Positions 37,240 through 56,982 of a stretch of 64,000 nt of DNA are shown here, piece by piece (positions within the stretch are counted from its first letter, which is position 1; each line of letters begins with the position of its first letter). Source of the stretch: Holophagales bacterium (GTDB lineage Bacteria; Acidobacteriota; Thermoanaerobaculia; UBA5066); the NCBI GenBank assembly GCA_016714815.1, contig JADKBZ010000016.1, positions 37,659 through 101,658 of the forward strand. Reading direction: 5' to 3'. Made by a program: the position numbers and the translations under genes. The notes under the pieces were generated by a model, which saw only the letters and a program-made list of their open reading frames with translations, ran no database searches and was not told where the DNA came from.

Positions 37240-37268
37240 TTGACATCGCAATTTCTTCGACCCATCAT
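37240..37268 (+). promoter_or_regulatory. putative sigma70 promoter of the TonB receptor operon
   Basis: TTGACA-17 nt-CATCAT; GAGGAGG Shine-Dalgarno before ATG 37317. Confidence 0.55.
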
Positions 37269-39729: not shown

Positions 39730-39788
39730 GAAGATGCGGCCCGCACCGTGCGGATCGAACCTCCGGGATCGGAGGGAAGGGCGCTGCC

Positions 39789-41024
39789 ATGGGAAACCCC
39801 GTCCTGTCATTCCTCAGCCGCGACTGGGCCGGACTGCCGGTCGCCGCCGTCGTGGCGCTGCTCGGAGGATGGTGTCTGCGCGTCGGCCGGGCCAGCGGCG
39901 GGACGGGGGCGGCGGCCGTCGGCACCGCGCTGCTGGTCGTCGCGGGGCTCCTGGCGCTCGGGTCCGTCTGGCATCTCGTTCACGTGGCGCGGACGCGCGC
40001 CCTGCATCCGCCGCCCGGCCGGCTCGTCGACGTGGGCGGCTACCGGATGCACGTCGTCGCCGAGGGAGAGAGCGGGGGGAAGCCCTCGGTCGTCTGGATG
40101 GCCGGGGGGCACGTGGGCGGCTTCGCCATCCACCACCTTCATCGGATGCTGAGGGAAGAGACGCGCTCGATCCTCGTCGATCGTCCCGGAACCGGCTGGA
40201 GCGATATCGGTCCATTTCCGCGCTCGACGGTGCGGGAAGCGGAAGAGATCTTCGCCGCCCTCGACGCTGCCGGGGAGAAGGGGCCATTCGTCCTCGTCGG
40301 CCACTCCTTCGGCGGCCTCCTCGTCGCGAACATGGCGCGGCGCCACCCGGAGCGGCTGGCCGGCCTCGTCCTCCTCGACCCGACGCCTCCCGACACGATC
40401 ATCTACGGACCGCCCCTTCCGGGCCTCTTCCAGATGCGGTACGGAGCGGTCCTGAACGCGCTGCCGCGCCTCTTCGGATTCCACACCGACTTTGCCGGGA
40501 GGCGCATGAGGAAGACGGCACCGCCCGTCTTCAAGAAGGTGCTCGACCTCGTCGAGGAGCGCCTCGGCGAGGCCGGCCGGGCGCTCCGGGCGATCGACTG
40601 CGGAACGAAGGGCGCCTGCACGAGCGCGTCGATCTACTCGGAGCTGACTCCCGCCGGCCTCGCACGGGTCGGATGGGACACGACGCCTTACGACGGAGAC
40701 CTCGGCGACCTGCCGGTCATCCTCGTGAACCCGGCCGACATGGCGGAGCAGGAGCTCGACTACGTCGTGAAGACGGTCGAGCGGCAGACCGGACGGCCGG
40801 TCGACGTGAACCGGCTGCGGCGCTTTTACAAGGGCTCGATGGGGAGGTACCTCTCGTGCTCGAGCCGGGCGGAGCGGGCCTACGCCCCGGCCGGGACGGG
40901 GCACAACTTCCCATATGTCGAGCCCGAGCTCATCGCCGGGGTCGTCCGGAGGCTTCTGACGCCCGGTGTTCCGGTAGCCGCCGCTCCTGCGAATCCCGGA
41001 AGGGCCGAAGGGACCGCCTCGTGA
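39789..41024 (+). CDS. membrane-anchored alpha/beta hydrolase
   Basis: 2 N-terminal TM, PPPGRLVDVGG, DRPGTGWSD, GHSFGG, GTGHNF. Confidence 0.88.
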   Translation: MGNPVLSFLSRDWAGLPVAAVVALLGGWCLRVGRASGGTGAAAVGTALLVVAGLLALGSVWHLVHVARTRALHPPPGRLVDVGGYRMHVVAEGESGGKPSVVWMAGGHVGGFAIHHLHRMLREETRSILVDRPGTGWSDIGPFPRSTVREAEEIFAALDAAGEKGPFVLVGHSFGGLLVANMARRHPERLAGLVLLDPTPPDTIIYGPPLPGLFQMRYGAVLNALPRLFGFHTDFAGRRMRKTAPPVFKKVLDLVEERLGEAGRALRAIDCGTKGACTSASIYSELTPAGLARVGWDTTPYDGDLGDLPVILVNPADMAEQELDYVVKTVERQTGRPVDVNRLRRFYKGSMGRYLSCSSRAERAYAPAGTGHNFPYVEPELIAGVVRRLLTPGVPVAAAPANPGRAEGTAS

Positions 41025-42754
41025 GCGCCGCGCCGCCCTCCGCGGTCCTCGCGGACCTCGCGGCGCGCCACTGGGAGTTCCTCTGCCACGAGCTCCCGCT
41101 GACGGCCGTGCTCGCCGGCGAGTCGACCCCCGACTCCGTCCTCTTCCGCGAGTCGCCCGCCGATCACGAGCGCCGGTATCGCACGGCGAGAGTCCTCCTC
41201 GCCGAGGTCGAGGCGATTCCCGCCGACGGGCTCGAAGCAGAGGACCGGGCCACTCACGCTCTCCTCCGTCACGAGCTCGGGAGCCTCCGCGCTCTTCACG
41301 AGGTCGCCGAGCACCTGAGGCCCTCTCTTTTCCCGAACAGTCCCGCGCTCATGGCGGCCCACTTCGCGAACACCGCGAGCATCGACGACGCGGCGTCGGC
41401 CGAGCGCTACGTCGACCGTCTCGCGACGCTTCCGGCGTACCTCCGCGACCTCAAGGAACGTCTCGAAGAAGGGCGCGAGCGGGGGTTCCGGTACCCGCGT
41501 CGCGTCCTCGACCTGGTGGCCGGGAGCACCCGCGGAATCGCCTCCGGGCCGGTCGAGGCCCAGCCCTGGTTGAAGCCCTTCCAGCGCTCCGCCGCGGCAG
41601 GACGCGAGATGGTCCGGAACGCCGCCTCTCGCGCGGAGGCTCTCGCCCGCAACGAGCTGCTCCCCGCCTTCGAGGAGTTCGCCGCGTTCGTCGAGGGACC
41701 CCTCGCCGAAGGCGCTCGCGAGACCGTCACCTGTACCGATGCCCCGCTCGGCCGGGAGCTCTACCGCGCCCTGCTGAAGGACCAGACCACCCTCGATCTC
41801 GGGCCGGAGGAGATCCACGAGCTGGGGCTCTCCGAGAGGAAGCGCCTCGAGGGCGAGATCGAAGCCGTCGCCGCGGAGGCGGGCTTCCCCGGAGACGTTG
41901 CCGGCTATCGCCGGTTCCTCGCGGGGGCGGAGTTCCTCGTTCCCTCGAAGGAAGCGCTCCGGGAGAGGGCGCAGGTCCTCTGCAAGCGGATCGACGCCCG
42001 CATACCCGCCTTCTTCGGGCTCATTCCGAGAATGACCTATGGCGTGGAGACGATCCCGGAAGCGGCCGCCGAGCGCCTCCCCCCGGCCTACGCGCAGGCC
42101 AACCCCGCCGACCGGACCGGGCCGGGGATCTTCCAGATCACGAGCCTTCCCGCGAGACTCCCGACCTGGTTCCTCCCGGCGCTGACGCTGCACGAGGCCT
42201 GGCCCGGGCACCTCATGCACCTGGCGCTCCTGCAGGAAGCGGAGCACCTTCCTGCCTTCCGGCGCCACGGCGCGCTCCGCTATCTCGTCTGCCTCGAAGG
42301 GTGGGCTCTCTACTGCGAGGGCCTCGGCGAGGAGATGGGGATCTACGAGACGCCGCACGAACGCTACGGCCGGCTGGAAGGGGAGACGTGGAGGGCGCTG
42401 CGGCTCGTCGTCGACACGGGAATTCACTGGTACGGCTGGAGCCGCGAACGCGCCGTCGAGGAGATGGCGCGCCACCTGGCCCTTCCGCTTCCGACGATCG
42501 AGGCCGAGGTGGACCGATACATCGCGTGGCCGGGTCAGGCGCTCGTCTACCAGCTGGGGAACCTGAAGTTCCGCGAGCTCCGGCGCCGGGCCGAGGGGAG
42601 GCTCGGAGAGAGGTTCCGGATTCGGGCCTTCCACGACGCGCTGATGGCGGCGGGAGCCGTGACCCTGCCGGTCCTCGACGATCTCGTCGAGGAGTGGCTG
42701 CGCCGCGAGGACGGTCCGACCGCGGAGGATGGGAGCACCGATGGTCTTCGATAG
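41021..42754 (+). CDS. DUF885 family protein (putative metallopeptidase), no signal peptide
   Basis: HEAWPGHLMH, EGWALYCE, EVDRYIAWPGQALVY, FHDALM; GTGA overlap. Confidence 0.9.
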   Translation: MSAAPPSAVLADLAARHWEFLCHELPLTAVLAGESTPDSVLFRESPADHERRYRTARVLLAEVEAIPADGLEAEDRATHALLRHELGSLRALHEVAEHLRPSLFPNSPALMAAHFANTASIDDAASAERYVDRLATLPAYLRDLKERLEEGRERGFRYPRRVLDLVAGSTRGIASGPVEAQPWLKPFQRSAAAGREMVRNAASRAEALARNELLPAFEEFAAFVEGPLAEGARETVTCTDAPLGRELYRALLKDQTTLDLGPEEIHELGLSERKRLEGEIEAVAAEAGFPGDVAGYRRFLAGAEFLVPSKEALRERAQVLCKRIDARIPAFFGLIPRMTYGVETIPEAAAERLPPAYAQANPADRTGPGIFQITSLPARLPTWFLPALTLHEAWPGHLMHLALLQEAEHLPAFRRHGALRYLVCLEGWALYCEGLGEEMGIYETPHERYGRLEGETWRALRLVVDTGIHWYGWSRERAVEEMARHLALPLPTIEAEVDRYIAWPGQALVYQLGNLKFRELRRRAEGRLGERFRIRAFHDALMAAGAVTLPVLDDLVEEWLRREDGPTAEDGSTDGLR

Positions 42755-43514
42755 CGCCTGCATTCCCTCGAGCCACATTCACTTCGAGGTGCACGGAGAA
42801 GGCGTCCCCCTCTTCCTCGGTTTTCCCCTCATGGCCTCGCAGGGCGAGATCTTCGGCGAGGAGGGCGCCGCGGTCCTGCGCGGTTACCTCGACCGGCTGA
42901 CGGACCGCTACCGCGTCCTCGTCGCCGACTATCCGAGCATCGGCAGGAGCGGCTCGATCCCGACCGCCGAGCTCACCGCCGACCGCGTCTCTACGGACCT
43001 CCTTCGCGTGGCCGACGCCGCCGGGTTCGACCGCTTCGCCTTCTGGGGCTTCTCCTGGGGAGGAGCCGCGGGGCTGCAGCTCGCGTCGCGAACGGATCGG
43101 CTGACGGCGCTCGTCTGCGGGGGCTGGCCTCCGCTCGGCGGTCCGTACGCGGAGATCCTCCGGGCGAGCCGCGAGGCGGCGGCAGATCCGCCGGCCTCGG
43201 CGACGGTGGTCCTGCGCGAGCCGGCGCAGTACGCGCAGTGGGTCACCTTCTACGAGAGCGTCCTGAACTGGCCCGAGGCGGAAGCCGTTGCCCGAATCGC
43301 CTGCCCGCGGATGGCGTACGCCGGCTCGGAGGGCGACCCCACGGCAGGGCACGAAGTCCCGATCTCGATCGCCTCGACGATCCGCGACCGACGCGGAGAG
43401 CTCGAGGCGATGGGCTGGCGCGTGACGGAGATCCCCGGCCGCGACCACTCCGTCTGCCTCGATCCGGCGACGGTCGTGCCCCTCGTCCGGGATTTCCTCG
43501 ACGCGGTCTCGTGA
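42741..43514 (+). CDS. alpha/beta hydrolase
   Basis: DYPSIGRS, GFSWGG nucleophile elbow, GRDH. Confidence 0.85.
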   Translation: MVFDSACIPSSHIHFEVHGEGVPLFLGFPLMASQGEIFGEEGAAVLRGYLDRLTDRYRVLVADYPSIGRSGSIPTAELTADRVSTDLLRVADAAGFDRFAFWGFSWGGAAGLQLASRTDRLTALVCGGWPPLGGPYAEILRASREAAADPPASATVVLREPAQYAQWVTFYESVLNWPEAEAVARIACPRMAYAGSEGDPTAGHEVPISIASTIRDRRGELEAMGWRVTEIPGRDHSVCLDPATVVPLVRDFLDAVS

Positions 43515-43541
43515 AACGGCGATGACGTGAAGGAGCCGGCC

Positions 43542-45575
43542 ATGACGCTCGACGACCCGAAGACGGAACCCGCAGCGGCGATGGTCTCGTTCGGGTCCGT
43601 GAGCTTTGAGGACCCGGATGCCTGGCTCGAGGAGGAGACCGAGACGGTCCTCTCGTGGCAGGCGGAGCAGGACGCGCGGGCGGCGTCCTGGCTCGCGGCG
43701 CGGCCCGGGTTCGCAGACCTTTGTGAGCGCATCGCCGCGCTCGACTCCAACCAGGCCGTGTCGGCGCCGCAGTACGGCGGTGGCCGCTGGTTCCGGCAGC
43801 GGGTGCCGGAGGGCGAGGACCTGGCAATTCTCGAGGTCGCGGAGACACCGACGGGAGAGGGCCGCCGGGTCGTCGACCTGAACGTGCTGCGAACCAGCGA
43901 GCCGCTGCTCATTCCCTGGTTCGTCCCCTCGCCCGACGGCCGCAGGCTGGCGTACTCGCGGTCCGCAGTGGGGCGGGAGCCCGAGTCGTTCCAGGTCATC
44001 GACGTGGAGACGGGCGAGCTCCTCCTCGCGGGCGTCCCGCAGGAGCGGGCGACGTCCCCGGTCTGGCTGCCGGACGGAAGCGGATTCACCTATCGGGCCA
44101 TCGATCCGGCCGTCTCGAAGAGCGACAGCCTCATCTTCCACCTCACCCTGGGCGAGGCGCCGCCGACGAAGCCGGAGCCGCTCGACCTGGGCCACCCGAT
44201 GTCGTGGCCCGCGAGCGCCGCGGGCGGCCGCTACGTCCTCGTCTACTCCAACCACATGGAGCCGAGGCCCGACTTCATCCGGGAGATCGGCGGCGCCTGG
44301 CGTCCGTTCCTGAAGGCCGTGCCCGGCATGTTCCGCGGCGTCGTCCTGGGCGAGAAGTTCATCGCCATCACGACCGACGGTGCCGCGCGGGGCCGGCTGG
44401 TCTCGATCCCGCTCGACACTCCTTCGGACCGCGACGCCTGGCAGGAGCTCGTCCCGGGCTCCGACGCCGTCCTCGCCTCTATCGCCGCCGTCGGGCAGCG
44501 CCTGGTCCTCGTGGAGCTCGTCGACACCTACGCCCGCCTGCGCGTTCTCGGCGCCGACGGCCAGGTCGAGGGAGAGATCGCCCTGCCGGGACGGGGAGTC
44601 GTGAACACGACCAGCACGAATGCCGTCGCGATCGCGTTCCTGGACTGCGTCGCCGTCGGGGGCGACGACGATGTCGTCTTCGTCTACTCCTCGCTGACCC
44701 AGGCCCCGGCGCTCTACCGCGCCAGCGTCGTCGATCGGACGAGCGAACCCCTCACGCCGCCCGGGGCCCGGCTCGACGCCCTCGTGACCGACCACTCCGC
44801 CACGAGCGCGGACGGCACCCGGGTCCGCTATCGCGTCGTGACGCGGAAGGACGACCGGTCCGGGTCCCGGCCCACGATCGTCCACGCGCACGGCGGGTTC
44901 AACGTCGCCTTCCTGCCCGGATGGCCGGTCCCGTTTCTGGCCGCCTGGGTCCGGTCGGGCGGCGCTCTCGTGATCGCCCACGTACGCGGGGGCGGGGAGT
45001 TCGGGCCCGACTGGTGGCGGGCCGGGCAGCTCGCGCGGAAGCAGAACGGATTCGACGATCTCTACGCCGTCGCCGAGGACCTCGTGGCCCGAGGCGTCAC
45101 GATGCCCGGACGGCTGGGCGTCTACGGGACCTCCAGCGGCGGTACGCTGGCCGCCGTGGCTGCGGTCAAGCGCCCCGACCTGTTCCGGGCCGCCGTCCCC
45201 CAGGTCCCCATCACCGACCAGTTCGCGCTCGTCCGGGACCCCCTCACCTGGATGATCGCGAGGTTGGAGGACGGGGATCCGAACGAACCGGAGATGAGCC
45301 GGGTCCTCCTCTCCTGGTCCCCGTACCAGAACGTCGTCGACGGAGTGGCTTACCCGGCGGTCCTCCTGGACTGCGTGTCGAACGAACCGCGGTGTCCCGC
45401 GTGGCACGGCCGCAAGCTGGCGGCACGGATGCAGCGGGCGACGTCCTCCGGCCGTCCCGTCCTGCTCCGGGTCCGCCGGAGCGCGGGGCAACGCGCCGTG
45501 GGCGAGGCCGCGCAGCGCCTCCAGCAGGCCGAGTTGCTCGCCTTCTTCGTCGACCAGCTGGGGCTCCCGACATGA
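43542..45575 (+). CDS. prolyl oligopeptidase (S9A) family protein with a deviant catalytic triad
   Basis: DPDAWLE, SPDG propeller, VRGGGEFGPDW, GTSSGG; Asp site reads NEPRC and His site reads AGQR. Confidence 0.88.
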   Translation: MTLDDPKTEPAAAMVSFGSVSFEDPDAWLEEETETVLSWQAEQDARAASWLAARPGFADLCERIAALDSNQAVSAPQYGGGRWFRQRVPEGEDLAILEVAETPTGEGRRVVDLNVLRTSEPLLIPWFVPSPDGRRLAYSRSAVGREPESFQVIDVETGELLLAGVPQERATSPVWLPDGSGFTYRAIDPAVSKSDSLIFHLTLGEAPPTKPEPLDLGHPMSWPASAAGGRYVLVYSNHMEPRPDFIREIGGAWRPFLKAVPGMFRGVVLGEKFIAITTDGAARGRLVSIPLDTPSDRDAWQELVPGSDAVLASIAAVGQRLVLVELVDTYARLRVLGADGQVEGEIALPGRGVVNTTSTNAVAIAFLDCVAVGGDDDVVFVYSSLTQAPALYRASVVDRTSEPLTPPGARLDALVTDHSATSADGTRVRYRVVTRKDDRSGSRPTIVHAHGGFNVAFLPGWPVPFLAAWVRSGGALVIAHVRGGGEFGPDWWRAGQLARKQNGFDDLYAVAEDLVARGVTMPGRLGVYGTSSGGTLAAVAAVKRPDLFRAAVPQVPITDQFALVRDPLTWMIARLEDGDPNEPEMSRVLLSWSPYQNVVDGVAYPAVLLDCVSNEPRCPAWHGRKLAARMQRATSSGRPVLLRVRRSAGQRAVGEAAQRLQQAELLAFFVDQLGLPT

Positions 45576-45630: not shown

Positions 45631-47055
45631 ATGACGGAACCCGTGACGAAAGCTCCTGAAGCGTCCGCCGCCCCGAAGGGCCTCGGCTGGCGAGTGCTGG
45701 CCGCGTACGCCCTTCCGACGTTGCCGCTCTTCTTCCTCATGGGCCCCGCGATCTCGGTGATCCAGGGGATCTACGCGAAATTCTTCGGGCTCGGCCTGGC
45801 GCAGATCGCCCTCGTGCTGATGATCGCCCGGAGCTTCAACGCGGTGACCGATCCGGTCATCGGCTACCTGTCCGACCGCTACCGGGCCCGGCGAGGTACC
45901 CGGAAACCGTTTCTCGTCGGAGGGTCCCTGCTCGCGGTCCTGGCCTGCTGGTTCCTCTACGTCCCGGTCGGCAAGGTCACGACGCTCTCGTTCCTTGGCT
46001 GGTTTCTGCTCGCGGACATCGGCTGGTCGATGTGCGCCGTTCCGTACTACGCCTGGATGGCGGAGCTGACGGAGGACTACCGCGAGCGGACTCGGATAGC
46101 GAGCTGGCGCGCCATGTCCGGATACTTCGGTTACCTCGCGTTCTTCGGCATGCCGATGGCCGCCGGGCCCTTCCTCGGAACGACCGAGTTCACGCCCGTC
46201 ACGCTGCGCTGGTGCGCGATCTTCGCCGCCGTCACCCTGCCCACCGCGGCCCTGATCGCCGCGTTCGTCGTCCCGAACGGGGCCGTCGCCGCACGGCCGG
46301 CCGCCAACCCCTTCCGGGGAGCGATGCGTGCGATCGCGGGGAATCGCCCTCTCTGGAGATTCATGGCGATGTACCTGGTCGGGGGCCTGGGCGCAGGCAT
46401 GGCCTGGGGCGTGGCGTTCTTCTACATCGACGGCTACCAGAAGCTCGGCGCGAAGTTCTCGGGGCTGCTCGTCCTCAGCATTCCGGTCGCCATCCTGGCC
46501 ACGCCCGTCTGGGGCTGGCTCTGCAGGCGGTTCGGGAAGCAGCAGGTGTGGGCCGCCGGCTACGTCGGAGCGAGCATCGCCTCGCTCGGGTACATCTTCA
46601 TCTCGCCGGGACCCGGAGCCGCGGTCCTCGTCGGGGTCACTCTGCTGCTGCTGAACGCCATGGTCGTGGTGGATCCGGTCGCCGGGCCGGCGATGCTGGC
46701 GGACGTCGTCGACTACGGACGCTGGCGGTTCGGTACCGACCAGGGAGGGACTTACTTCGCCCTCTACGGGATGATCCAGAAGCTCAACATCGGGATCGGA
46801 GCGGGGGCCGGGCTCGCGCTCGCCGGCGCGTTCGGCTTCGACGCCACGGTCGCGAAGCAGACACCGGGCGGGCTCGTCGGCTTGTTCCTCTCGCTCTCGG
46901 TGATGCCGGCCGTCTGCTACCTGATCTCGGCCGTCATGATCTGGCGCTTTCCGATCAACCAGAAGCGCCAGAAGGTCATCGTGAAGGCCATCGAGCGGAG
47001 GGAGCGGCGCCGCGCCGCGGCGGCTTTCGAGGCGCCGGCGGAGGTCGCACCGTGA
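45631..47055 (+). CDS. MFS transporter, GPH/MelB-like
   Basis: AVTDPVIGYLSD, AELTEDYRERT, MLADVVDY; ~12 TM. Confidence 0.9.
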   Translation: MTEPVTKAPEASAAPKGLGWRVLAAYALPTLPLFFLMGPAISVIQGIYAKFFGLGLAQIALVLMIARSFNAVTDPVIGYLSDRYRARRGTRKPFLVGGSLLAVLACWFLYVPVGKVTTLSFLGWFLLADIGWSMCAVPYYAWMAELTEDYRERTRIASWRAMSGYFGYLAFFGMPMAAGPFLGTTEFTPVTLRWCAIFAAVTLPTAALIAAFVVPNGAVAARPAANPFRGAMRAIAGNRPLWRFMAMYLVGGLGAGMAWGVAFFYIDGYQKLGAKFSGLLVLSIPVAILATPVWGWLCRRFGKQQVWAAGYVGASIASLGYIFISPGPGAAVLVGVTLLLLNAMVVVDPVAGPAMLADVVDYGRWRFGTDQGGTYFALYGMIQKLNIGIGAGAGLALAGAFGFDATVAKQTPGGLVGLFLSLSVMPAVCYLISAVMIWRFPINQKRQKVIVKAIERRERRRAAAAFEAPAEVAP

Positions 47056-48116
47056 GTACGAGCAGGCCGGCCGAAACGAGGAACGCCAGCGCCCTGCTGC
47101 GCGACGGACTGGTCTGGGACAACCACGGCTGCATGCCGGTGGGACGCCCGAACGACACGTCGTTCCTGCCGCAGCTCCGGCGCTACCGTTCGGCGGGCGT
47201 CGACGCCGTGATGCTCAACGTCGGCTTCGGCGACATGGGCGTCGAGGAGCACCTGCGCACGCTGGCCGACATGCGCCACTGGCTGAAGGCGCGGCCCGAC
47301 GAGTACGTGCTCATCGGCACGGCGGACGACGTCGAGCGGGCCCGCGCGACCGGCCGCCTCGCCGTCGGCTTCGACATCGAGGGCGCGAACGCGATCGCGG
47401 ACCAGCCGAGCCTCATCGAGACCTACTACGACCTCGGTGTCCGCTGGATGCTCCTGGCTTACAACCGGAACAACCGGGTCGGAGGCGGGTGCCAGGACGA
47501 GGACACGGGCCTGACGGCCTACGGACGCGAGGTCATCGCCGAGATGGAGCGCGTGGGGATGCAGGTCTGCTGCAGCCACACCGGGTACCGCACCGTCCGC
47601 GACGTCTTCGAGGTCGTCACGAAGCCGGTCATCTTCTCGCACAGCAACGCGAGAGCGGTTCACGCGCACCCGCGGAACGTCCCCGACGACCTGATCCGCG
47701 CCTGCGCCGCGACGGGGGGCGTCGTCGGCCTCAACGGCCTGAGCGTCTTCCTCGGCCCGGGCGAGGACCTCGTCGAGACCTTCGTGCGCCACGTCGAGCA
47801 CGTCGTCTCTCTCGTCGGTCCCGGGCACGTCGCCCTGGGGCTCGACTACGTCTTCGACCGGCAGGAGCTGGACGAGATCCTCGTCAAGATGCGCGCGACC
47901 TTCCCGCCGGGGCTCGGCTACGACGAGCCGCTGCGGTTCGTCGAGCCGGAGCAGCTGGAGCGGGTCGTCGAGGTCCTCCTCTCCCGCGGCTTCCGGACGG
48001 CGGACCTCGAGGCGCTCCTGGGCGGAAACCTGATGAGGCTGGCGAGGTCGGTCTGGAAGGCTCCGCGCCCGGCCGCGGAAGCGACGGGCGATCAGCGGAC
48101 GAGCTCTCTCCCGTGA
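47052..48116 (+). CDS. M19 (renal/membrane) dipeptidase family
   Basis: WDNHGC, FDIEG, GVRWMLLAYN, SH-T, FSHSN, RNVPD. Confidence 0.9.
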   Translation: MSTSRPAETRNASALLRDGLVWDNHGCMPVGRPNDTSFLPQLRRYRSAGVDAVMLNVGFGDMGVEEHLRTLADMRHWLKARPDEYVLIGTADDVERARATGRLAVGFDIEGANAIADQPSLIETYYDLGVRWMLLAYNRNNRVGGGCQDEDTGLTAYGREVIAEMERVGMQVCCSHTGYRTVRDVFEVVTKPVIFSHSNARAVHAHPRNVPDDLIRACAATGGVVGLNGLSVFLGPGEDLVETFVRHVEHVVSLVGPGHVALGLDYVFDRQELDEILVKMRATFPPGLGYDEPLRFVEPEQLERVVEVLLSRGFRTADLEALLGGNLMRLARSVWKAPRPAAEATGDQRTSSLP

Positions 48117-49402
48117 GAGGGCTGCGCGCCGTCTTTAGCGACTACGTCGAGGCAGCGCGCGCCTTCTCGCAGCCCGCGAGGCTGCTCGTCGTCTCCGTTT
48201 TCCTCGTCTGGGTCGCCCGGGGAATCCAGGGGGTCCTCTTCAACCTCTATCTCGTCGAGGCCGGCCACCAGGCGCCGTTCGTCGGCCGGGCCCTTGCGAT
48301 GACGGGGGCCGGCATCGCCCTCGCGGCCCTCCCGGCGGGGCTCTTCGCGGAGCGCTGGGGCCGGCGCCGCTGCCTGATGCTCGGCCTCGCCGCCGAGGGA
48401 ATCGGCCTCCTGCTCCGGGCCCTCGTGACGGATCCGGGGGCGATCCTCGCCTTGAGCTTCCTCGGAGGCGCCGGCCAGTCGCTCTACCAGATCGCCGCCC
48501 TGCCATTCCTGACCGAGCACTCCGGGTCGCGCGAGCGGACGCACCTCTTCAGCGTCGTCTTCTCGGCGGCTCTCCTGGCCGGCGTCGTGGGGAGCGCCGT
48601 CGGCGGCTTCCTGCCTGCCGCCCTGCTCTCTCTTCCCGACGCAGTCCGGCCCGGGTCGCTCGGGGCGTACCGGGGGGTGCTCGTCCTGGGCGGGCTCGTC
48701 GCGTTCTCCGCCTCCCTGCCGCTCCTGCGGCTGCGCGGGCTGCAGGAGGCGTCGGCCGAGCAGCAGCGGGCGGTGCAGCCGCCCGGTTCGGGACGACTGC
48801 TCGTCCCGATCGCGTTCAACTTCCTCCTCGTCGGGTGCGGCGCCGGCCTCGTCGTCCCCTTCATGAACCTCTACTTCAAGGACCGCTTCGCCTGCTCGGC
48901 CGCGCAGATCGGGGCGTACTTCTCGATCGCGTCGATCGTCACGGCGGTCGCGGGCCTCGCCGCGCCGCTCGTCGCGCGCCGGTTCGGGACCCTCCGGACG
49001 GCCGTCGCGTTCGAGCTCCTCTCGCTCCCATTCCTCGTCACGATGGGGGCGGAGAGCCGACTCGCCGTAGCAGTCGGGGCGTTCTGGCTCCGCGCGATGC
49101 TCATGCAGGCCGGGACGCCGTTGCTGCAGACCTTCGTCATGGAGGCCCTCCCGCCGGGCCTTCGCGCCCGCTCGAGCAGCGTCAACAACCTCGTCTGGAA
49201 CCTCGGCTGGGCCGCGAGCGCCGGAGGCGCCGGGGCTCTGATCGCGCGCTGGGGCTACGCGCTTCCGTTCTACCTGACCGCCGCGCTCTACGCGACGGCA
49301 TCCATCACCTTCTACCTTTCGTTCCGGCGCTTCCCGCGAGGCGGGGGAGAGCCGCGGATCGGAGAGGTCGCCATGAGCCTCGGTGCTCAGGAGGTCCACT
49401 GA
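48113..49402 (+). CDS. MFS transporter
   Basis: AERWGRRR motif A, ~12 TM; GTGA overlap. Confidence 0.88.
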   Translation: MRGLRAVFSDYVEAARAFSQPARLLVVSVFLVWVARGIQGVLFNLYLVEAGHQAPFVGRALAMTGAGIALAALPAGLFAERWGRRRCLMLGLAAEGIGLLLRALVTDPGAILALSFLGGAGQSLYQIAALPFLTEHSGSRERTHLFSVVFSAALLAGVVGSAVGGFLPAALLSLPDAVRPGSLGAYRGVLVLGGLVAFSASLPLLRLRGLQEASAEQQRAVQPPGSGRLLVPIAFNFLLVGCGAGLVVPFMNLYFKDRFACSAAQIGAYFSIASIVTAVAGLAAPLVARRFGTLRTAVAFELLSLPFLVTMGAESRLAVAVGAFWLRAMLMQAGTPLLQTFVMEALPPGLRARSSSVNNLVWNLGWAASAGGAGALIARWGYALPFYLTAALYATASITFYLSFRRFPRGGGEPRIGEVAMSLGAQEVH

Positions 49403-49403
49403 C

Positions 49404-50738
49404 ATGAAAGAGAGCGTTTTCGAAGTCCTGCGCGCGGAGGGGCTGAACCGCCTGCGGATCCACTACGACTGGAGGTGCGACGTCTTCTCCCTCTACGCGG
49501 CGCGAGAGTGGGACGCCGACACGTCGTTCGCCCGGTACAACGCGGCGTTCACCGCCTGGACCCTCTGCCCGTCCGACGGGCGGTACCTCAATCACGCCCA
49601 GACGGAGGCGGCCTTCGAGAAGCATGGGATGTCGGCGCACCTCGGCAGGGTCAAGGAGCTGATGCGGAAGGGGAGGCACATCCTCCTCGATTGCTACTTT
49701 CACGAGAAGCTCGACATCCGCTTCGTCAACCACATCCACAGCGACAAGCGCGGCGTCAACAACCGGCGCTCGTCGATCGTGATGGGCGGGATCCGGCGCC
49801 ACGAGCCGGGCGAGGACGAGATCGACGTCTTCGTCGACGGGATGAACCTCGGCCGCGGGATGACATTCAAGAACGTGGCGGCCGGCCTGCCGATGGGCGG
49901 CTGCAAGACGACCGTCCAGATGGCGCCGGTCGACCTCGGCGACCTCGACCAGGTCGGCTTCCTGGCCTACGCGACGGACCGGACCCGGAATACCGCCGGA
50001 CCGGACATGAAGTTCCCTCCGGAGCTCGCCGACGTCGTGAACGAGCACTTCTCGCTGCACTTCGTGGGCGGGCCGAAGGGGCCTCTGGGCCCCACCGGCA
50101 CCCCCACCGCCCACGGGGTCTACATGGCCGTGAAGCAGGGGGCGAGATTCCTCTGGGGTTCCGAGTCTCTCGAGGGGAAGACGATCGCCGTGCAGGGGCT
50201 GGGCGCCGTCGGGTTCCACCTGGCGGGACTCTACCTGAAGGAGGGCGCGCGCCTCATCGTCTGCGACCGCGAGCCGGCCGCCGTCGACGCGTTCCTGAAG
50301 GCACAGCCGGGCGCCGCGATCCGGGTCGTCGATCCCGGGGAGATCCTCGGCGTCGAGGCGGACGTCTTCTCTCCGGCCGCGGCCGGCGGCATCCTGACGG
50401 AAGAGAACATCCCGGACCTTCGCTTCAAGCTGATCATGGGAGGCGCGAACAACGTTCTCCGAGCCTCCAGCCAGGAAGAGGAGTACGCGCTGGCCCGGCT
50501 GCTCGCGAAGCACGGAGTGCTCTACCAGGTCGATTGGTGGCACAACGTCGCCGGAGTGATGGCTGGCTACGAGGAGTACGTGTACCAGCGCGAAGCCAGC
50601 ATCGAACGGCTGATGGAGAAGGTCGGGAAGCTCTGCACCGAGACGACGTGGGAGAACCTGACCGAGGCCCGTCGCGAGGGGATCACGCCGACCGAGCGCG
50701 CCTACCGAACGGCGGAGCGCGAGGTCTACGGGGAATAG
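49404..50738 (+). CDS. Glu/Leu/Phe/Val dehydrogenase family with N-terminal extension
   Basis: GGIRR, RGMTFKN, GGCK, TAHGV, QGLGAVG, GGANN. Confidence 0.88.
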   Translation: MKESVFEVLRAEGLNRLRIHYDWRCDVFSLYAAREWDADTSFARYNAAFTAWTLCPSDGRYLNHAQTEAAFEKHGMSAHLGRVKELMRKGRHILLDCYFHEKLDIRFVNHIHSDKRGVNNRRSSIVMGGIRRHEPGEDEIDVFVDGMNLGRGMTFKNVAAGLPMGGCKTTVQMAPVDLGDLDQVGFLAYATDRTRNTAGPDMKFPPELADVVNEHFSLHFVGGPKGPLGPTGTPTAHGVYMAVKQGARFLWGSESLEGKTIAVQGLGAVGFHLAGLYLKEGARLIVCDREPAAVDAFLKAQPGAAIRVVDPGEILGVEADVFSPAAAGGILTEENIPDLRFKLIMGGANNVLRASSQEEEYALARLLAKHGVLYQVDWWHNVAGVMAGYEEYVYQREASIERLMEKVGKLCTETTWENLTEARREGITPTERAYRTAEREVYGE

Positions 50739-50797: not shown

Positions 50798-51997
50798 GTG
50801 ACACGGGTCTTCTCGTCCGACTATCGCGATCACGGGACCAGGTTCCCGGACCCCTTCCCGGTCCATCGGCTGAAGCGGGTCGATCGCCCGACCACCTGGA
50901 TCAACGAAGAAGAGATCCGGAGGGTCGACGAGCGGGACGGCGGATTCCACCGGGCCGGCCGCGGGGAATACGGCGGGCACATCCAGAAGGAGTACCACCG
51001 CTTTCAGGAGAAGTTCCCGCTCTCGGAAGCGCTCTTCGAGGTCACGCACCGGCTCGGCGAGCCCGACGCGGTCTCCGGCGCTCCGAGGCGAGGCCCGGCC
51101 CCGGGGACGGACGACCCGGCGGCGATGGCGAGGCACATCAAGGAGACCGGCTACTTCCTCCGGGCCGACATGATCGGGATCTGCAGGCTGCCGCCCTACG
51201 CGGTTTTCACCCATGGCCGCAAGGACGATCAGCCGATCGAGCTGACTCACGACTACGCGATCGCCATCCTGGTGGACCAGGACTACAAGACCTCGGCAGC
51301 GTTCAACGGGCGCGACTGGATCAGCAACTCGATGAGCCTGGTCGCCTATTCCCACTCGGCGTTCATCGCCTGCTCCCTGGCGGAGTACATCCGCTCGCTG
51401 GGATACGAAGCGCGGGCCCACCACGCGACGAACTACCAGGTCGTGCTCCCGCCGATCCTGCTCTGGGCGGGGCTGGGAGAGATGAGCCGGATGGGCGACG
51501 TCGTCCTGAACCCGTTCCTCGGCCCTCGCTTCAAGGCGGCGGTGGTGACGACCAGCCTGCCGCTGGAAGTCGACAAGCCGATCGACTTCGGGCTTCAGGA
51601 CTTCTGCGACAAGTGCGGGAAATGCGCCCGGGAGTGCCCGGTCCAGGCCATCTCCCACGGCGGCAAGGTCCGGGAGAAGGGATACGAGCGCTGGCCGGTG
51701 AACGTGGAGAAGTGCACGTCCATGCGGGTCGGGAATCGCCTCGGGTCGGGATGCGGAACCTGCATCAAAGTTTGCCCCTGGAACAAGCCCTTCACGCCGT
51801 TCCACCGGATGGTGAGCTGGAGCCTGAGGAACCTGCCCCCGACCCGCCGTCCCGCCATCTGGGCCGACGACCTGTTCGGGTACGGACGGCCGGACCCGAG
51901 ACGGAAGTGGTGGCTGGACCTCGAAGTGGTGGATGGAGAGTGGCGGATCCCGCGATGTGGGCCCTCGTCACAGCTCCCGGTCCGGGAGGAGCCCTGA
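50798..51997 (+). CDS. rdhA: cobalamin/2x[4Fe-4S] reductive dehalogenase, catabolic (non-respiratory) type
   Basis: ARHIKETGYFLRADMIGIC, DWIS, AGLGEMSRMG, NPFLGPRFK, TTSLPLEVDKPIDFGLQDFCDKCGKCARECP, CGTCIKVCPWNK; no Tat signal, no rdhB. Confidence 0.85.
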   Translation: MTRVFSSDYRDHGTRFPDPFPVHRLKRVDRPTTWINEEEIRRVDERDGGFHRAGRGEYGGHIQKEYHRFQEKFPLSEALFEVTHRLGEPDAVSGAPRRGPAPGTDDPAAMARHIKETGYFLRADMIGICRLPPYAVFTHGRKDDQPIELTHDYAIAILVDQDYKTSAAFNGRDWISNSMSLVAYSHSAFIACSLAEYIRSLGYEARAHHATNYQVVLPPILLWAGLGEMSRMGDVVLNPFLGPRFKAAVVTTSLPLEVDKPIDFGLQDFCDKCGKCARECPVQAISHGGKVREKGYERWPVNVEKCTSMRVGNRLGSGCGTCIKVCPWNKPFTPFHRMVSWSLRNLPPTRRPAIWADDLFGYGRPDPRRKWWLDLEVVDGEWRIPRCGPSSQLPVREEP

Positions 51998-51998
51998 C

Positions 51999-54065
51999 AT
52001 GACGCAACCGAGCACGACCGAAGTGGAAGCCCTCCTCGCGCCCTGGCCCGGTCCCTACGGCGGCCTGCCGCCCTTCGACGTGGCGACACCCGCCGCGATC
52101 GAGCGTGCGTTCGGGATCGCGCTCGAGAGGAAGCGCGCCGAACTGCGCGCCATCGGCGACAACCCGGCGCCGCCGACGTTCGAGAACACGGTGGAGGCGC
52201 TCGAGGACTCCGGACGGGAGCTCCGGCGCGTCTCCGTCGTCTACCAGGTCTTCGCGTCGACGATGGGGACGCCTCAGATGCGCGAGGTCGAAAAGAACGT
52301 CGCGCCTCTCCTCCCCGTCCTCGAGGACGAGATCGCGCACGACGACGCCCTCTTTGCGCGCATCGAGGCGGTCTGGCAGGGGAGGGAGGCCGCGGGCCTC
52401 ACGAGGGAGCAGGAGCGGCTGACGGAGCTCGTGCGCGACCGTCTGAAGCGGCGCGGGGCCGGGCTCCCGCCGGAGGCGAAGAAGCGCCTCGGGGAGATCA
52501 ACGCCCGCGTCGCCTCGCTCCAGGCGCGCTTCAACCAGAACCTCGTGACCGACCAGGACGGCCAGGCCGTCTTCATCGAGGACGAGAGCGGTCTCGACGG
52601 CCTCGGCGAGGAGCAGCGCCTCGCCGCCGCGCAGGCGGCGACCGAGCGCGGCCGGCCCGGGACCTGGGCGATCCCGAACAGGCGCCCCGCGGTCTGGCCC
52701 TTCCTGACGCAGTCCACCCGGCGCGACCTCCGCGAGAAGGTCTGGCGGATGTGGACGATGCGCGGAGACAACCCCGGCGAGAGCGACAACAAGCCGGTCA
52801 TCGCCGAGATCCTGAAGCTGCGCGGCGAAAAGGCTCGGCTTCTCGGCTTCCCCAGCTTCGCGCACTTCGCCACGGCCAACCGGATGGCCCGGACGCCGGA
52901 GGCGGCGCTCGAGCTGATGACGAAGACCTGGCAGAGCGTGATCGGGCCGACGCGCGCCCTCGTGGCGGACCTCCAGGCGATCGCCGACGCCGAGGGGGCC
53001 GGCATCCGCCTCGCGCCCTGGGACCGGCTCTTCTACTCGGCGAGGCTCCGCAAGTCCCGCTTCGACCTCGACGCCGACGCCGTGCGGCAGCACCTCGAGC
53101 TGGAATCGGTCCTGGCGGCGATCTTCTGGGCGGCGGGCCGCGTCCACGGCCTCGCGTTCCGCCAGCTCCCCGACGCACCGGTCTGCCACCCGTCGATCCG
53201 CGTCTTCGAGCTGAGCCGGGGCGGCGAGCCGGTCGGTCTCCTCTGGCTCGACGTCCTCGGCCGGCCGGGAAAGATGCACGGCTCGTGGCAGGCCGAGTAC
53301 CGCGCGGCGGAGTCGTTCCGGGGGCGGGTGCTGCCGATCTCCTCGGTGAACTCCGGCCTCCCGGCACCGCGGGACGGCGAGCCGGTCCTCCTCCCGTGGG
53401 AGTACGCGAACGTCCTCTTCCACGAGTTCGGTCACGCCCTCCACATGCTCCTCTCCGAGGCGCGCTACCCCTCCCTCGGGAGTGTCGCCGTGCCGTGGGA
53501 CTTCGTGGAACTCCCCTCGTTCCTCAACGAGCGGTGGCTCCTCGACCACGAGCTCCTCGCCCGCTTCGCGCGGCTGCACGGGACCGGCGCGCCGATCTCC
53601 GAGGAACTCGTGACGAGCATCGAGCGCGCGCTCCGCTTCGACCGCGTCCTGACGCTGAACCTCGACTTCCTCGGCGGGGCGATCGTCGACATGCGGATGC
53701 ACCTCCTGGCCGACGGCCGCGACGTCGACGCGGTCCGGCTCGAAGAAGAGACCCTCGCGGAGCTGGGGATGCCGGAGGCCTGGGACCTCATCATGAGGGT
53801 CCCGCACTGCTGGCACTCCATCTCCGACGGCTACGCGGCGGGCCTCTACTCCTACCTCTGGTCCGACGTCATGACGGCCGACGTCGCCGAGGCGTTCCTC
53901 TCCTCGCCCGGAGGTCTCTACGACGTGGAGACCGGCGAGCGGTGGCGACGGACGATCCTGAGCGTCGGGACGAGCGTCCCTGCCGAGGAGGCGTTCCGGG
54001 ACTTCATGGGGCGCGACCCCGACCCATCGGCCCTGCTGCGCCGATTCGGGCTGGAGGCCCGATGA
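51999..54065 (+). CDS. M3 family metallopeptidase (Dcp-like), copy A
   Basis: [41 protein letters not shown]. Confidence 0.93.
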
Positions 54066-54151
54066 CAATGCCGACCCGCAAGACCCTCCCGCGATCCCTC
54101 GATTCCCTTCACCGCGACTTCCACCGCACCGACCCGGGGAGCGCCCCATGA
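54062..54151 (+). CDS. 29-aa mini-ORF ([29 protein letters not shown])
   Basis: ATGA overlaps with both the upstream M3 stop and the downstream IYD start. Confidence 0.45.
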
Positions 54152-54873
54152 GCCAGCCGCCGGAATCCGATCCCTGCGTCCTCGAGCCCCTTCCCGACTA
54201 CCGCGAATATCCGGCGGAGGAGATGCGCGAGCGCGCCCGATGGTTCTACCGGGACGTCGCGCGACGTCGCACGGTGCGCGAGTTCGACCGGCGCCCGGTC
54301 CCCCGGGAGGTGATCGAGCAGTGCCTTCTCGCGGCGGGCACCGCGCCCTCGGGCGCGAACCAGCAGCCGTGGCACTTCGCCGTCGTCACCGATCCCGTTC
54401 GCAAGAAGAAGATCCGCGAAGCGGCCGAGGAGGAGGAGCGGGAGTTCTACGCCGGCCGGGCGCCGCAGGAGTGGCGGGACGCGCTGGCGCCCCTCGGGAC
54501 GGACGAGAACAAGCCCTTCCTGGAGGACGCCCCCGTCCTCATCGCGATCTTCGCGCAGGCTCACGGCGTCCGGCCGGACGGGGAGCGGCTCAAGCACTAC
54601 TACGTGCACGAGTCGGTCGGGATCGCGACGGGCTTCCTCCTCGTCGCCCTCCACCACGCCGGTCTCGCGACGCTGACCCACACGCCGAACCCGATGGGCT
54701 TTCTCAACGAGTGCTGCGGGCGGCCGTCCTCCGAGAAGCCGATGATCCTCCTCGTCGTCGGCTATCCCGCACCGGGCTGCCGGGTCCCCGTGCACGGCGG
54801 GATCAAGAAGCCGCTGGAGGGGATCTCGAGCTGGCTCGGGCCCGAAGGCGGCCGAACGGAGCCGACTCCATGA
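54148..54873 (+). CDS. iyd: iodotyrosine deiodinase (IYD)-like flavoprotein, nitroreductase fold
   Basis: [56 protein letters not shown]. Confidence 0.88.
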
Positions 54874-56982
54874 CGGATCGCAACGGAGACCAGCCAGCGC
54901 CCCGCACCCTCGACCTCTCGCCGGCCGCGGAGGCGCTCCTCGCACCCTGGACCGGGCCCTGCGGGGGCACGCCGCCGTTCGACGTGGCGGAGCCCGCGTC
55001 GATCGAGAGCGCCTACCGGGTCGCCATCGCCCGCAAGCGCGAGGAGGTCGCGGCGATTGCCTCGGACCCGGCGCCGCCCACGTTCGAGAACACGATCGCG
55101 GCGCTCGAGGATGCCGGCCGGGCGCTCCGCCGTGTCGACACCCTCTTCCGGGTCTTCTCGTCGACGCGGAGCTCCGGGGAGATGCGTGAGGTGGAGACGA
55201 GACTCAAGCCGCTCCTTCCCGCTCTCGAGGACGAGATTGCCCACGACGACGCCCTCTTTGCCCGGATCCGTGCAGTCGACCAGTCGGCCGAGCAGGCGGG
55301 GCTCACGCCCGAGGAGATTCGCCTGACCCGCGTCGTCCGCGACCGGCTCTCGCTGCGGGGCGCCGGACTCGAGCCGGGCGCCAGGGCGCGCCTCGCCCAG
55401 ATCAGCGGACGGATCGCCGAGCTCTCCGCCGCCTTCAGCCAGAACCTCCTCGCGGACGAGGAGGGGCAGCAGGTCCCCCTCGACGACGAGGCGGATCTCG
55501 AGGGCCTCGACGAGGAGTTCCGCGGCGTGCTCGCATCCGCCGCCGTGTCGCGCGGGCTCTCCGCGCGCTGGGCCGTCCCCAGCACGCGCGCCCACGTCAT
55601 GCCCGTTCTGATCTCTTCGGCGCGTCGCGAGGTCAGGGAACGGGTCTGGCGCATGTGGGTGCGGCGCGGCGGGAACCCCGGCGCGCACGACAACAGGCCC
55701 GTCGTCGCCGAGATCCTCCGCCTGCGCGCGGGAGAAGGCCCGGCTCCTCGGCTTCCCGACCTACGCCCACCTCGCCACGGCCGACCGGATCGCGGGGACG
55801 CCGGAGAACGCCCTCGCCCTCGTGAAGCGGGTCTGGGACGGCGTCGTCGGCGCCGCTCGCGACCGGCTCGCCTCGATGCAGGCGCTCGCGGACGAGGACG
55901 GCGTCTGCCCGATCGCGCCCTGGGACCGGCGCTTCTACGCGAGCCGGCTGCGCCGGGCACGCCTGGACCTCGATGAAGGAGAGGTGAGCGCCTACCTGCC
56001 GGTTGAGTCGATCCGCGAGGGAGCGTTCCACGCGGCGAGCCGGCTTCACGGACTCGACCTCGCGGAAGTCCACGACGTCCCCGTCTGCCACCCCGACGTC
56101 CGCGTCTTCGCCGTGCGGCGAGGGAAGGAGTCGATCGGCCTCCTCTGGCTCGACCTCTACGCGCGCGACGGCAAGGTCTCGGGCGGCTGGATGGACGAGT
56201 ACCGCGCGGCGGAGTCCTTCCGCGGAAGGGTCCTTCCGCTCGTGTCGATCAACATGAACGTCGCGAGACCGGCGGCGGGAGCGACGGCGCTCCTCTCATG
56301 GTGGGACGCTCTCACCTTCTTCCACGAGCTGGGCCACGCTCTCCACATGCTCTGCTCGAAGGCGCGCACTCCCTCGCTCGGGAGCTTCACGGTCGCCCCC
56401 GACGTTCTCGAGCTGCCGTCGATCCTGAACGAGCGCTGGCTCACGACGCTCGAGGTGCTCGAACGGTTCGCGCGGCACCACCGGACCGGAGAGCCGATGC
56501 CGAAGCGTCTCGTCGAGAGGATCGAGGAAGCCCGGGTCTTCGACCCCTCCGACGGGGCGACCGCGAGTCTCGGCTACCTGGCGACGGCCTTCGTCGACCT
56601 CGCCGTCCACCTCGCGGCCGATGGCGGGGAGGTCGACCCTGTCGCTGTAGAGGAGAGGGCCCTTGCAGACCTCGGCCTCCCGCCAGCTGCCGAGCCGCTC
56701 CATCGCGTCACGCACCTCCGTCACGCCTTCGCCGGCATCTACGAGGACCGCTACGCGGCCGGCTACTACTGTTACCTCCAGGCGGACGTCCTCGCGGCCG
56801 ACGCGGCGGAGGCATTCCTCTCGTCACCGGGAGGGCTCTACGACGCCGCGACGGCCGAGCGGTATCGGCGCACGATCCTCGCCGTCGGTCACGGCGTCCC
56901 CGCGGCGGAGGCCTTCCGGTCGTTCCGGGGCCGCGATCCGGACCCCGAGGCGCTGACGAGACGGTTCGGACGGAAATCCTGA
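54870..56982 (+). pseudogene. M3 family metallopeptidase copy B with +1 frameshift at ~55731 (pseudogene or sequence error)
   Basis: ctgcgcgcg-g-gagaaggcccggctcctcggcttc: removing one G restores [12 protein letters not shown] as in copy A; HELGH and ELPS intact downstream. Confidence 0.85.

Follow-up and report, generated by a model that had tools for sequence, protein, structure and literature searches.

The DNA considered here is a window of 64,000 nucleotides from a Holophagales bacterium (assembly GCA_016714815.1, contig JADKBZ010000016.1, positions 37,659 to 101,658 of the forward strand), which encodes an amino acid dehydrogenase (AADH) directly upstream of rdhA, the gene for a reductive dehalogenase. 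The dehydrogenase probably serves in catabolism and uses NAD+, and it represents a new clade of L-amino-acid dehydrogenases distinguished by a long N-terminus. Its most likely substrates are amino acids with aromatic or bulky hydrophobic side chains, set free by the operon peptidases, and the 2-oxo acid would be passed on to enzymes of the 4-hydroxyphenylpyruvate dioxygenase (HPPD) or indolepyruvate:ferredoxin oxidoreductase (IorA) type. Its gene is a core component of a conserved peptide-utilisation operon, in which rdhA is a frequent, old and dispensable accessory occupying a variable slot. The enzyme itself appears to be an ordinary representative of its family, and not one specialised for halogenated residues.

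In the proposed pathway, the operon peptidases would release amino acids and the dehydrogenase would take the first catabolic step, converting amino acid, NAD+ and H2O to 2-oxo acid, NH4+ and NADH. The substrates would most probably be tyrosine, phenylalanine or tryptophan, or at least bulky hydrophobic residues, and the arylpyruvate product could be processed by the homologues of HPPD or IorA that are encoded elsewhere in the genome. RdhA, joined in fewer genomes by a homologue of iodotyrosine deiodinase (IYD), may plausibly extend this pathway to ortho-halogenated phenolic residues in peptides, for example halotyrosine; such an extension is reasonable because characterised catabolic RdhAs take ortho-halogenated phenols (PMC10463259). 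The dehydrogenase would in that case act on the same carbon skeleton, either before or after dehalogenation. The substrate class, reaction direction, NAD+ preference and any metabolic link with RdhA or IYD are inferences in this scheme.

An intact dehydrogenase with a folded N-terminal extension

Gene integrity, family membership and catalytic residues are read directly. The open reading frame (ORF) at 49404-50738 gives a stop-free translation of 444 amino acids, and the gene is intact. The ATG at 49404 is taken as the real start because it lies 1 nt past the stop of the upstream MFS gene (stop 49402), is preceded by a GGAGG ribosome-binding site and corresponds to the start residue shared by homologues from many phyla. 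The protein is a member of the ELFV (Glu/Leu/Phe/Val) amino acid dehydrogenase superfamily, exceeding the Pfam gathering scores for both the N-terminal dimerisation domain (PF02812; 28.3 bits against a cut-off of 25.3) and the NAD-binding domain (PF00208; 45.2 bits against 23.4). Translation and Pfam analysis bear out its earlier description as a 444-residue AADH containing the motifs IVMGGIRRH (residues 124-133) and GGCKTTV (residues 165-171). The N-terminal extension reported in the same first-pass annotation is also real, but is ~87 residues long and not the ~100 then estimated: in a HMMER alignment, Met127 pairs with Leu40 of the Geobacillus stearothermophilus leucine dehydrogenase (LeuDH; 6acf). 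The same alignment pairs Lys156, Lys168 and Asp201 with LeuDH Lys68 (carboxylate-binding), Lys80 (catalytic) and Asp115, and the catalytic apparatus is intact. LeuDHs are the best solved relatives of the protein (E 4e-40).

The fold is equally well defined. An AlphaFold2 model of the dehydrogenase (pLDDT 95.6) has two domains, one of them a Rossmann NAD(P) domain, and is matched by Foldseek with probability 1.00 to LeuDH, phenylalanine dehydrogenase (PheDH), tryptophan dehydrogenase (TrpDH) and glutamate dehydrogenase (GDH); it superposes on the first three at TMt 0.80-0.91 and 26-30% identity. Modelled alone, the first 100 residues (pLDDT 94.3) form a beta-hairpin, a short helix and two longer helices. 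No convincing PDB relative of these residues was found, with a best VIA match of Z 3.8 and no Foldseek match at E <= 0.001. On this modelling, the extension of ~90 residues would be a conserved and well-folded module that lacks a known fold relative.

A confidently folded extension (pLDDT 94) with no PDB relative might help to build a new kind of substrate site, or act as a regulatory domain, in an enzyme for non-proteinogenic or modified amino acids from unusual peptides, and the changing accessory hydrolases of the operon (S12/beta-lactamase-fold, erythromycin-esterase-like, amidohydrolase and M28) would suit such a role. This reading is highly improbable, however: the enzyme has the full standard set of residues for binding the alpha-carboxylate and alpha-amino groups, and in other phyla its gene is surrounded by those of commonplace amino acid transporters and enzymes of 2-oxoacid catabolism.

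A separate clade spread across phyla

The unusual motifs and the extension are family-wide traits and are not peculiar to the window gene. A search of 5.8 billion proteins recovered more than 100 full-length homologues, 45-92% identical and covering the extension. In a HMMER scan that was exhaustive over 1.84 billion representatives, ~40 clusters (at 50% identity) align from residue ~1-10 at >=160 bits, below which canonical proteins of ~350 amino acids appear that align only from residue ~118-127. These ~40 clusters, distributed over many phyla, retain the extension together with the motifs GGIRRH, GGxK, GPDM and WWHN. The family occurs in Synergistota, Desulfobacterota, Bacillota (including the gut genera Emergencia, Lactonifactor and Blautia), Actinomycetota and Acidobacteriota. 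Gly128, Arg131, Arg132, Lys156, Gly165, Gly166, Lys168, Gly199, Pro200, Asp201, Met202, Asn349, Asn350, Trp378 and Asn381 are invariant in all 58 aligned members, as are several residues of the extension, among them Phe6, Trp36, Phe49, Arg106 and His112. Motifs and extension had earlier been interpreted as signs of halogen adaptation, an interpretation at odds with their presence throughout the family, including ~75 loci without a dehalogenase.

In a maximum-likelihood tree, the family forms one clade (SH-aLRT 99, stem 0.32) nested within the LeuDH-like radiation of LeuDH, PheDH and TrpDH. The phylogenetic check recommended for the gene thus places it inside that radiation, on a tree without characterised PheDH sequences. 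The family does not group with canonical LeuDH enzymes of ~350-370 amino acids, and it also stands apart from the two Vdh-like paralogues encoded alongside a family member in the Streptomyces zagrosensis genome. The nearest canonical clusters carry automatic 'leucine dehydrogenase' labels only, and the PheDH and TrpDH clades are not labelled. No characterisation of the long-N-terminus clade was found in the literature on tyrosine dehydrogenase or on PheDH with IOR/Ptb, of which coverage was partial, so that absence is not proven. The clade is distinct and, as far as found, uncharacterised, with an extra domain, likely substrate class and ecological spread that are undescribed; its chemistry is almost certainly the standard ELFV reaction.

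The 70-74% identity between the Thermoanaerobaculia and Synergistota copies suggests that the dehydrogenase gene may have been transferred between phyla. Two loci, L011 (Acidobacteriota MAG_454_bin-04) and L133, carry a Synergistaceae-type pair of AADH and NSS (sodium:neurotransmitter-type) symporter genes and group inside Synergistota on the tree, not with the acidobacterial operon clade; their placement may reflect either horizontal transfer or misbinning. Tandem long-N-terminus paralogues, 69% and 67% identical to the window protein, adjoin an NSS symporter gene in a metagenome-assembled genome (MAG) of Acetomicrobium hydrogeniformans (L100/L105; G003:C7:530720-532529). Two unusually long proteins were also recovered: P0133 is a 669-residue family form with ~228 residues added ahead of the usual N-terminus, and residues 3464-3769 of the 5426-residue protein P0267 form a canonical LeuDH-type domain, which presumably lies within a megasynthase.

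Substrate pocket and cofactor

The specificity of LeuDH is set by L40, A113, V291 and V294; PheDH departs from it at 113 and 291, and 40 and 294 are determinants of GDH (PMC2723916). The corresponding residues of the window protein are Met127 (Met in 34, Ala in 16 and Ser in 6 of 58 family members), Gly199 (Gly in 58/58), Val385 (Val in 57/58) and a deletion at 294, a combination that does not match the LeuDH pocket. Nor are the residues with which GDH binds the gamma-carboxylate present (K89 at the 40-equivalent and S380 at the 294-equivalent), given Met, Ala or Ser at 127 and the deletion of 294; GDH models in NCBIfam score <=54 bits against cut-offs >600. Relative to PheDH, position 113 shows the change (to Gly) and position 291 retains Val, a comparison made with no characterised PheDH in the tree. 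By these alignments, the pocket is neither LeuDH-like nor GDH-like and has in common with PheDH a change at 113; it would fit a larger side chain, though it does not prove one. The best NCBIfam model is that of the ScyB TrpDH (NF035922), at 137.3 bits, below its equivalog cut-off of 600 bits.

NAD+ is the likely cofactor because Asp288, at the end of beta-2 and kept in 56/58 members, aligns with the Asp found in LeuDH, an NAD+-specific enzyme.

Gene neighbourhoods and the probable substrate class

The neighbourhoods of the family were compared at 80 genome loci by ORF clustering and by Pfam and NCBIfam annotation. An NSS amino acid symporter gene adjoins the dehydrogenase gene in 23/80 loci, and TrpX-like ABC binding proteins are encoded in six (TrpX is their best and sole NCBIfam match, at 314 bits, under its cut-off). 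IorA, IorB, phosphate butyryltransferase (Ptb) and butyrate kinase (Buk) genes are present in 7-9 loci. Desulfovibrio sp. 86 has the order TetR-AADH-IorA-IorB-Buk-permease-Ptb, and its IorA (671 bits against 651) and IorB (249.5 against 230) both pass the equivalog cut-offs for indolepyruvate:ferredoxin oxidoreductase. In Rhodococcus, the AADH gene is followed by a permease gene, for which AroP and PheP are the best models, and then by that for HPPD (E 1.8e-153 to 1T47). Other loci place oligopeptide ABC systems, M32, S9/DPP-IV or amidohydrolases near the dehydrogenase gene, a crotonase-family (ECH) gene lies downstream in seven Desulfobacterales loci, and PucR-type regulators are divergent from the AADH gene in three actinomycetes. 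The common denominator of these neighbourhoods is the uptake of amino acids or peptides, followed by oxidative deamination and disposal of the 2-oxo acid. Several independent pointers among them, though circumstantial, suggest an arylpyruvate product; other neighbourhoods are uninformative or lead in a different direction.

One actinomycete locus, L116 of Streptomyces zagrosensis (JACHJL010000020.1), combines a family member and its divergent PucR-type regulator with an extra pheS/pheT pair, a methyltransferase and an ATP-grasp gene ~3 kb away; these surroundings may represent a small biosynthetic or resistance cluster. A MIF tautomerase beside one Desulfobacterales copy was dropped as evidence, as it is not kept in other loci.

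Set against an aromatic substrate is the alternative of a branched-chain or broadly hydrophobic dehydrogenase, that is, a LeuDH or valine dehydrogenase (ValDH) with an added domain, for which the adjacency of rdhA would be metabolically meaningless beyond a shared peptide operon. LeuDHs are the best matches in both sequence and structure, Val385 equals LeuDH Val291, Ptb and butyrate kinase are typical of the disposal of branched-chain acyl-CoAs, and the host genome lacks a canonical LeuDH. Nevertheless, the partner oxidoreductase is the two-subunit IorAB, which passes the indolepyruvate models, and not VorABCD, and the neighbours elsewhere include HPPD, the AroP/PheP-like permease and TrpX-like binding proteins. 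Every member has Gly199 in place of LeuDH Ala113, position 294 is deleted, and Streptomyces keeps two canonical Vdh-like genes beside its family member. This alternative is rather unlikely.

The following points weigh against an aromatic substrate and an ordinary family enzyme. The neighbourhoods are heterogeneous, with ECH in Desulfobacterales and a MetQ-like lipoprotein, BCCT and MTTB elsewhere; HPPD adjacency is limited to two assemblies of Rhodococcus; Ptb and Buk are classically tied to branched-chain acyl-CoAs; and, again, LeuDHs are the closest in sequence and have the equivalent of Val385. The substrate class is drawn from the neighbours only. Moreover, rdhA is adjacent in 9/14 operons of the window lineage, which is frequent enough to leave room for a closer functional tie.

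The peptide operon

The layout of the operon in the window is directly apparent. A co-directional run without internal terminator-like sites extends from a promoter-like site at 37240-37268 and encodes, in order, a TonB-dependent receptor, DUF885, an alpha/beta hydrolase, S9, MFS_2, M19, MFS_1, AADH, RdhA, M3, an IYD-like protein, a second M3, an amidohydrolase and M28 (Table 1). The promoter-like site is the sole sigma-70-like match in 36-55.5 kb, just 5' of the receptor gene, and its position would fit one long transcript through the dehydrogenase gene and rdhA. A TetR-family ORF ends just ahead of this site. The window contains no homologue of the TetR regulator that accompanies dehydrogenase loci in other phyla.

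The dehydrogenase is the sole amino-acid-catabolising enzyme of this operon, and the genome additionally encodes one canonical GDH. Every acidobacterial relative has the arrangement MFS-M19-(MFS)-AADH-(slot)-M3. The real start of the first M3 gene is the ATG at 51999, 1 nt past the rdhA stop (TGACATG), and not the listed ATG at 51933, which overlaps rdhA (window 51933-52001). In relatives without rdhA, the equivalent M3 start abuts the dehydrogenase stop in the same tight junction.

Table 1. Features of the operon in the window
Feature	Position	Strand	Remarks
TonB-dependent receptor	37317..39680	+	First gene of run
ORF with DUF885	39734..42754	+	DUF885 in C-terminal 530 residues; real start probably later
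Alpha/beta hydrolase	42729..43514	+	
S9 prolyl-oligopeptidase-family protein	43527..45575	+	
MFS_2 transporter	45631..47055	+	
M19 dipeptidase	47052..48116	+	Start approximate
MFS_1 transporter	48134..49402	+	Start approximate
GGAGG ribosome-binding site	49390..49394	+	9 nt 5' of ATG 49404
Long-N-terminus ELFV-type amino acid dehydrogenase	49404..50738	+	Extension, residues 1-~90; catalytic Lys156, Lys168, Asp201; NAD site GLGAVG 265-270 and Asp288
Compact cytoplasmic reductive dehalogenase RdhA	50799..51997	+	~399 aa; GTG start preceded by GGGAGGA
M3 oligopeptidase	51999..54065	+	Start by comparison with relatives
IYD-like (iodotyrosine deiodinase) nitroreductase-family protein	54148..54873	+	
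Second M3 peptidase paralogue	54888..56982	+	

Relationship with rdhA

The gene following that of the dehydrogenase (50799-51997) does encode a reductive dehalogenase, as noted at first pass, and this is a compact one resembling NpRdhA. The gene begins 60 nt 3' of the dehydrogenase gene in the same orientation, and the intervening sequence contains no terminator-like site. The protein matches residues 260-632 of NpRdhA (4RAS) with E 3e-120, passes TIGR02486 and, as read from the alignment, keeps equivalents of Tyr426, Lys488 and Arg552, the key substrate-binding and catalytic residues of NpRdhA (PMC10463259). Ortho-halogenated phenols are substrates of every catabolic RdhA that has been characterised, and one of these enzymes converts 3-bromo-4-hydroxyphenylacetate no less well than the substrate it handles best (PMC10463259).

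The two genes are linked within one lineage. Among the 80 genome loci, rdhA lies beside the family in L001 and L005 only, and no RdhA homologue is encoded within 10 kb in the 74 loci outside the operon clade of the window; a metagenome scan then showed the link to be lineage-wide and clade-restricted. Genome and metagenome loci together gave 14 distinct M19-(MFS)-AADH-...-M3 operons with readable downstream sequence, and the counts from these are direct observations. The rdhA gene is directly 3' of the dehydrogenase gene in nine (the window, L001, L005, L123, L125, L126, L127, L130 and L136), M3 abuts the dehydrogenase stop in three (L002/L003, L004 and L128), and the slot between AADH and M3 is filled by an amidohydrolase in one (L124:7351-8610) and by an M28 peptidase in another (L132:7344-8876). 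The lineage forms a single clade of the dehydrogenase tree (SH-aLRT 100), with rdhA in two subclades; L004, which has no rdhA, is nested in an rdhA-positive group, a position that implies loss. The identities of RdhA and dehydrogenase to the window copies fall together (95/92, 84/86, 85/84, 81/81, 81/80 and 81/79%), a pattern that would fit long co-inheritance of the pair.

A second slot, after M3, also varies. The IYD-like gene is present in three operons (the window, L001 and L132, the last without rdhA), and other relatives have at this point an S12/beta-lactamase-fold hydrolase with DUF3471 or an erythromycin-esterase-like protein (variable-slot loci include L125:4782-6464 and L001:13993-17553). 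At least two variable slots suggest a flexible toolkit for unusual peptides. Locus L078:11333-11898 (DAORNK010000052.1, labelled as a Rubrivivax sp. MAG) encodes a dehydrogenase 89% identical to that of the window, followed by the AADH-rdhA spacer, ~8 rdhA codons and then unrelated sequence; either rdhA is truncated here or the assembly breaks off, and a Betaproteobacteria label for a Thermoanaerobaculia-type operon suggests a misbinned contig.

The first-pass annotation had proposed a dehydrogenase that is adapted to halogenated aromatic amino acids and, for want of a dedicated reductase gene, supplies the dehalogenases with NAD(P)H. Several observations are consistent with this proposal, namely the nine rdhA-bearing operons and the parallel identities that suggest co-inheritance, the three IYD-like genes, the retention of the NpRdhA Tyr/Lys/Arg in an RdhA whose characterised catabolic counterparts accept ortho-halophenols including 3-bromo-4-hydroxyphenylacetate (PMC10463259), and the redox neutrality that oxidative deamination followed by reductive dehalogenation would have. 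Yet the motifs and extension recur in other phyla, at ~75 loci where rdhA is absent from the flanking 10 kb; in the same operon the slot is in some cases empty or filled by an amidohydrolase or an M28 peptidase, and rdhA was lost in L004 although the surrounding subclade is rdhA-positive. Aligned dehydrogenases encoded with and without rdhA show no column that tells the two groups apart, and their candidate pocket residues are identical. In a 400-genome Acidobacteriota sample, 0/38 RdhA-bearing genomes carry the dehydrogenase; the family occurs in this sample in the window's own genome only, which limits its information on co-occurrence to that figure. Asp288 predicts NADH as the product, and NADH cannot reduce RdhA without a ferredoxin/flavodoxin reductase chain, which catabolic RdhAs lacking a fused reductase need (PMC10463259). 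Halogen adaptation with direct electron supply is thus quite improbable. What survives of the proposal is the aromatic class, favoured by IorAB, HPPD, the AroP/PheP-like permease, the TrpX-like protein and Gly at 113; specialisation for halogen finds no distinguishing residue, and a dedicated supply of NAD(P)H is unsupported, given that a ferredoxin/reductase chain would still be needed. Co-occurrence with rdhA, likewise, holds for 9/14 operons of the lineage and fails in the 74 other loci and the 38 RdhA-bearing genomes.

A related possibility is a halotyrosine module confined to the acidobacterial lineage, composed of the AADH, the compact RdhA and, in some cases, IYD, which would convert (halo)tyrosine to (halo)arylpyruvate while NADH drives dehalogenation via a ferredoxin/flavodoxin chain. 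It is a speculative and unlikely arrangement. If it is real, a clade of aromatic amino acid dehydrogenases that is also widespread among anaerobes of gut and sediment would here dispose of a halogenated amino acid in a redox-neutral, Stickland-like manner.

Significance and comparison with known enzymes

Should the evidence from gene context hold, the family would be a coherent clade of aromatic amino acid dehydrogenases, providing a transaminase-independent entry to arylpyruvate/IorAB routes towards arylacetates and, in Rhodococcus, the one actinomycete context with HPPD, a route towards homogentisate. Enzymes of PheDH and TrpDH type are scarce and are valued in biocatalysis. The dehydrogenase gene also helps to define the pathway around a compact cytoplasmic RdhA and a bacterial IYD homologue, for which halotyrosine or its 2-oxo acid is a concrete candidate substrate.

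Among known enzymes, LeuDH (EC 1.4.1.9; Geobacillus stearothermophilus 6ACF and Lysinibacillus sphaericus 1LEH) shares with the window protein its two-domain fold (TMt 0.83-0.86, root-mean-square deviation 2.4-2.6 A), the catalytic Lys/Lys/Asp, Asn-Asn, an NAD-type Asp after beta-2 and Val at 291, and is its best sequence match (E 4e-40). The two are, however, only 28-30% identical and fall into separate clades: the window protein has ~87 extra N-terminal residues, Gly for Ala113 and a deletion of position 294, and its family has GGIRRH, GGCK, GPDM and WWHN where LeuDH has GGTRMW, GGGK, AEDV and DYVIN. PheDH (EC 1.4.1.20; Rhodococcus sp. M4, 1C1D/1BW9) is similar in fold (TMt 0.80-0.83) and, like the window protein, has a residue other than Ala at position 113 (PMC2723916); the gene contexts of the window family, moreover, suggest the arylpyruvate products of such an enzyme. 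It is a weaker sequence match than LeuDH (83 against 141 bits) and lacks the N-terminal extension, and the window protein has the LeuDH-type Val at 291. The TrpDH ScyB (NpTrpDH; 5B37, NF035922) provides the best NCBIfam model and a similar fold (TMt 0.87), and TrpX-like transporters and IorAB occur near some family loci. The score is far under the 600-bit cut-off, however, the contexts are not those of scytonemin, and ScyB is without the extra N-terminal module. The neighbouring RdhA differs from NpRdhA in having neither the vestigial N-terminal duplicate domain nor any fused reductase (PMC10463259); it corresponds to the C-terminal cobalamin/Fe-S half of that enzyme, with the same Tyr/Lys/Arg.

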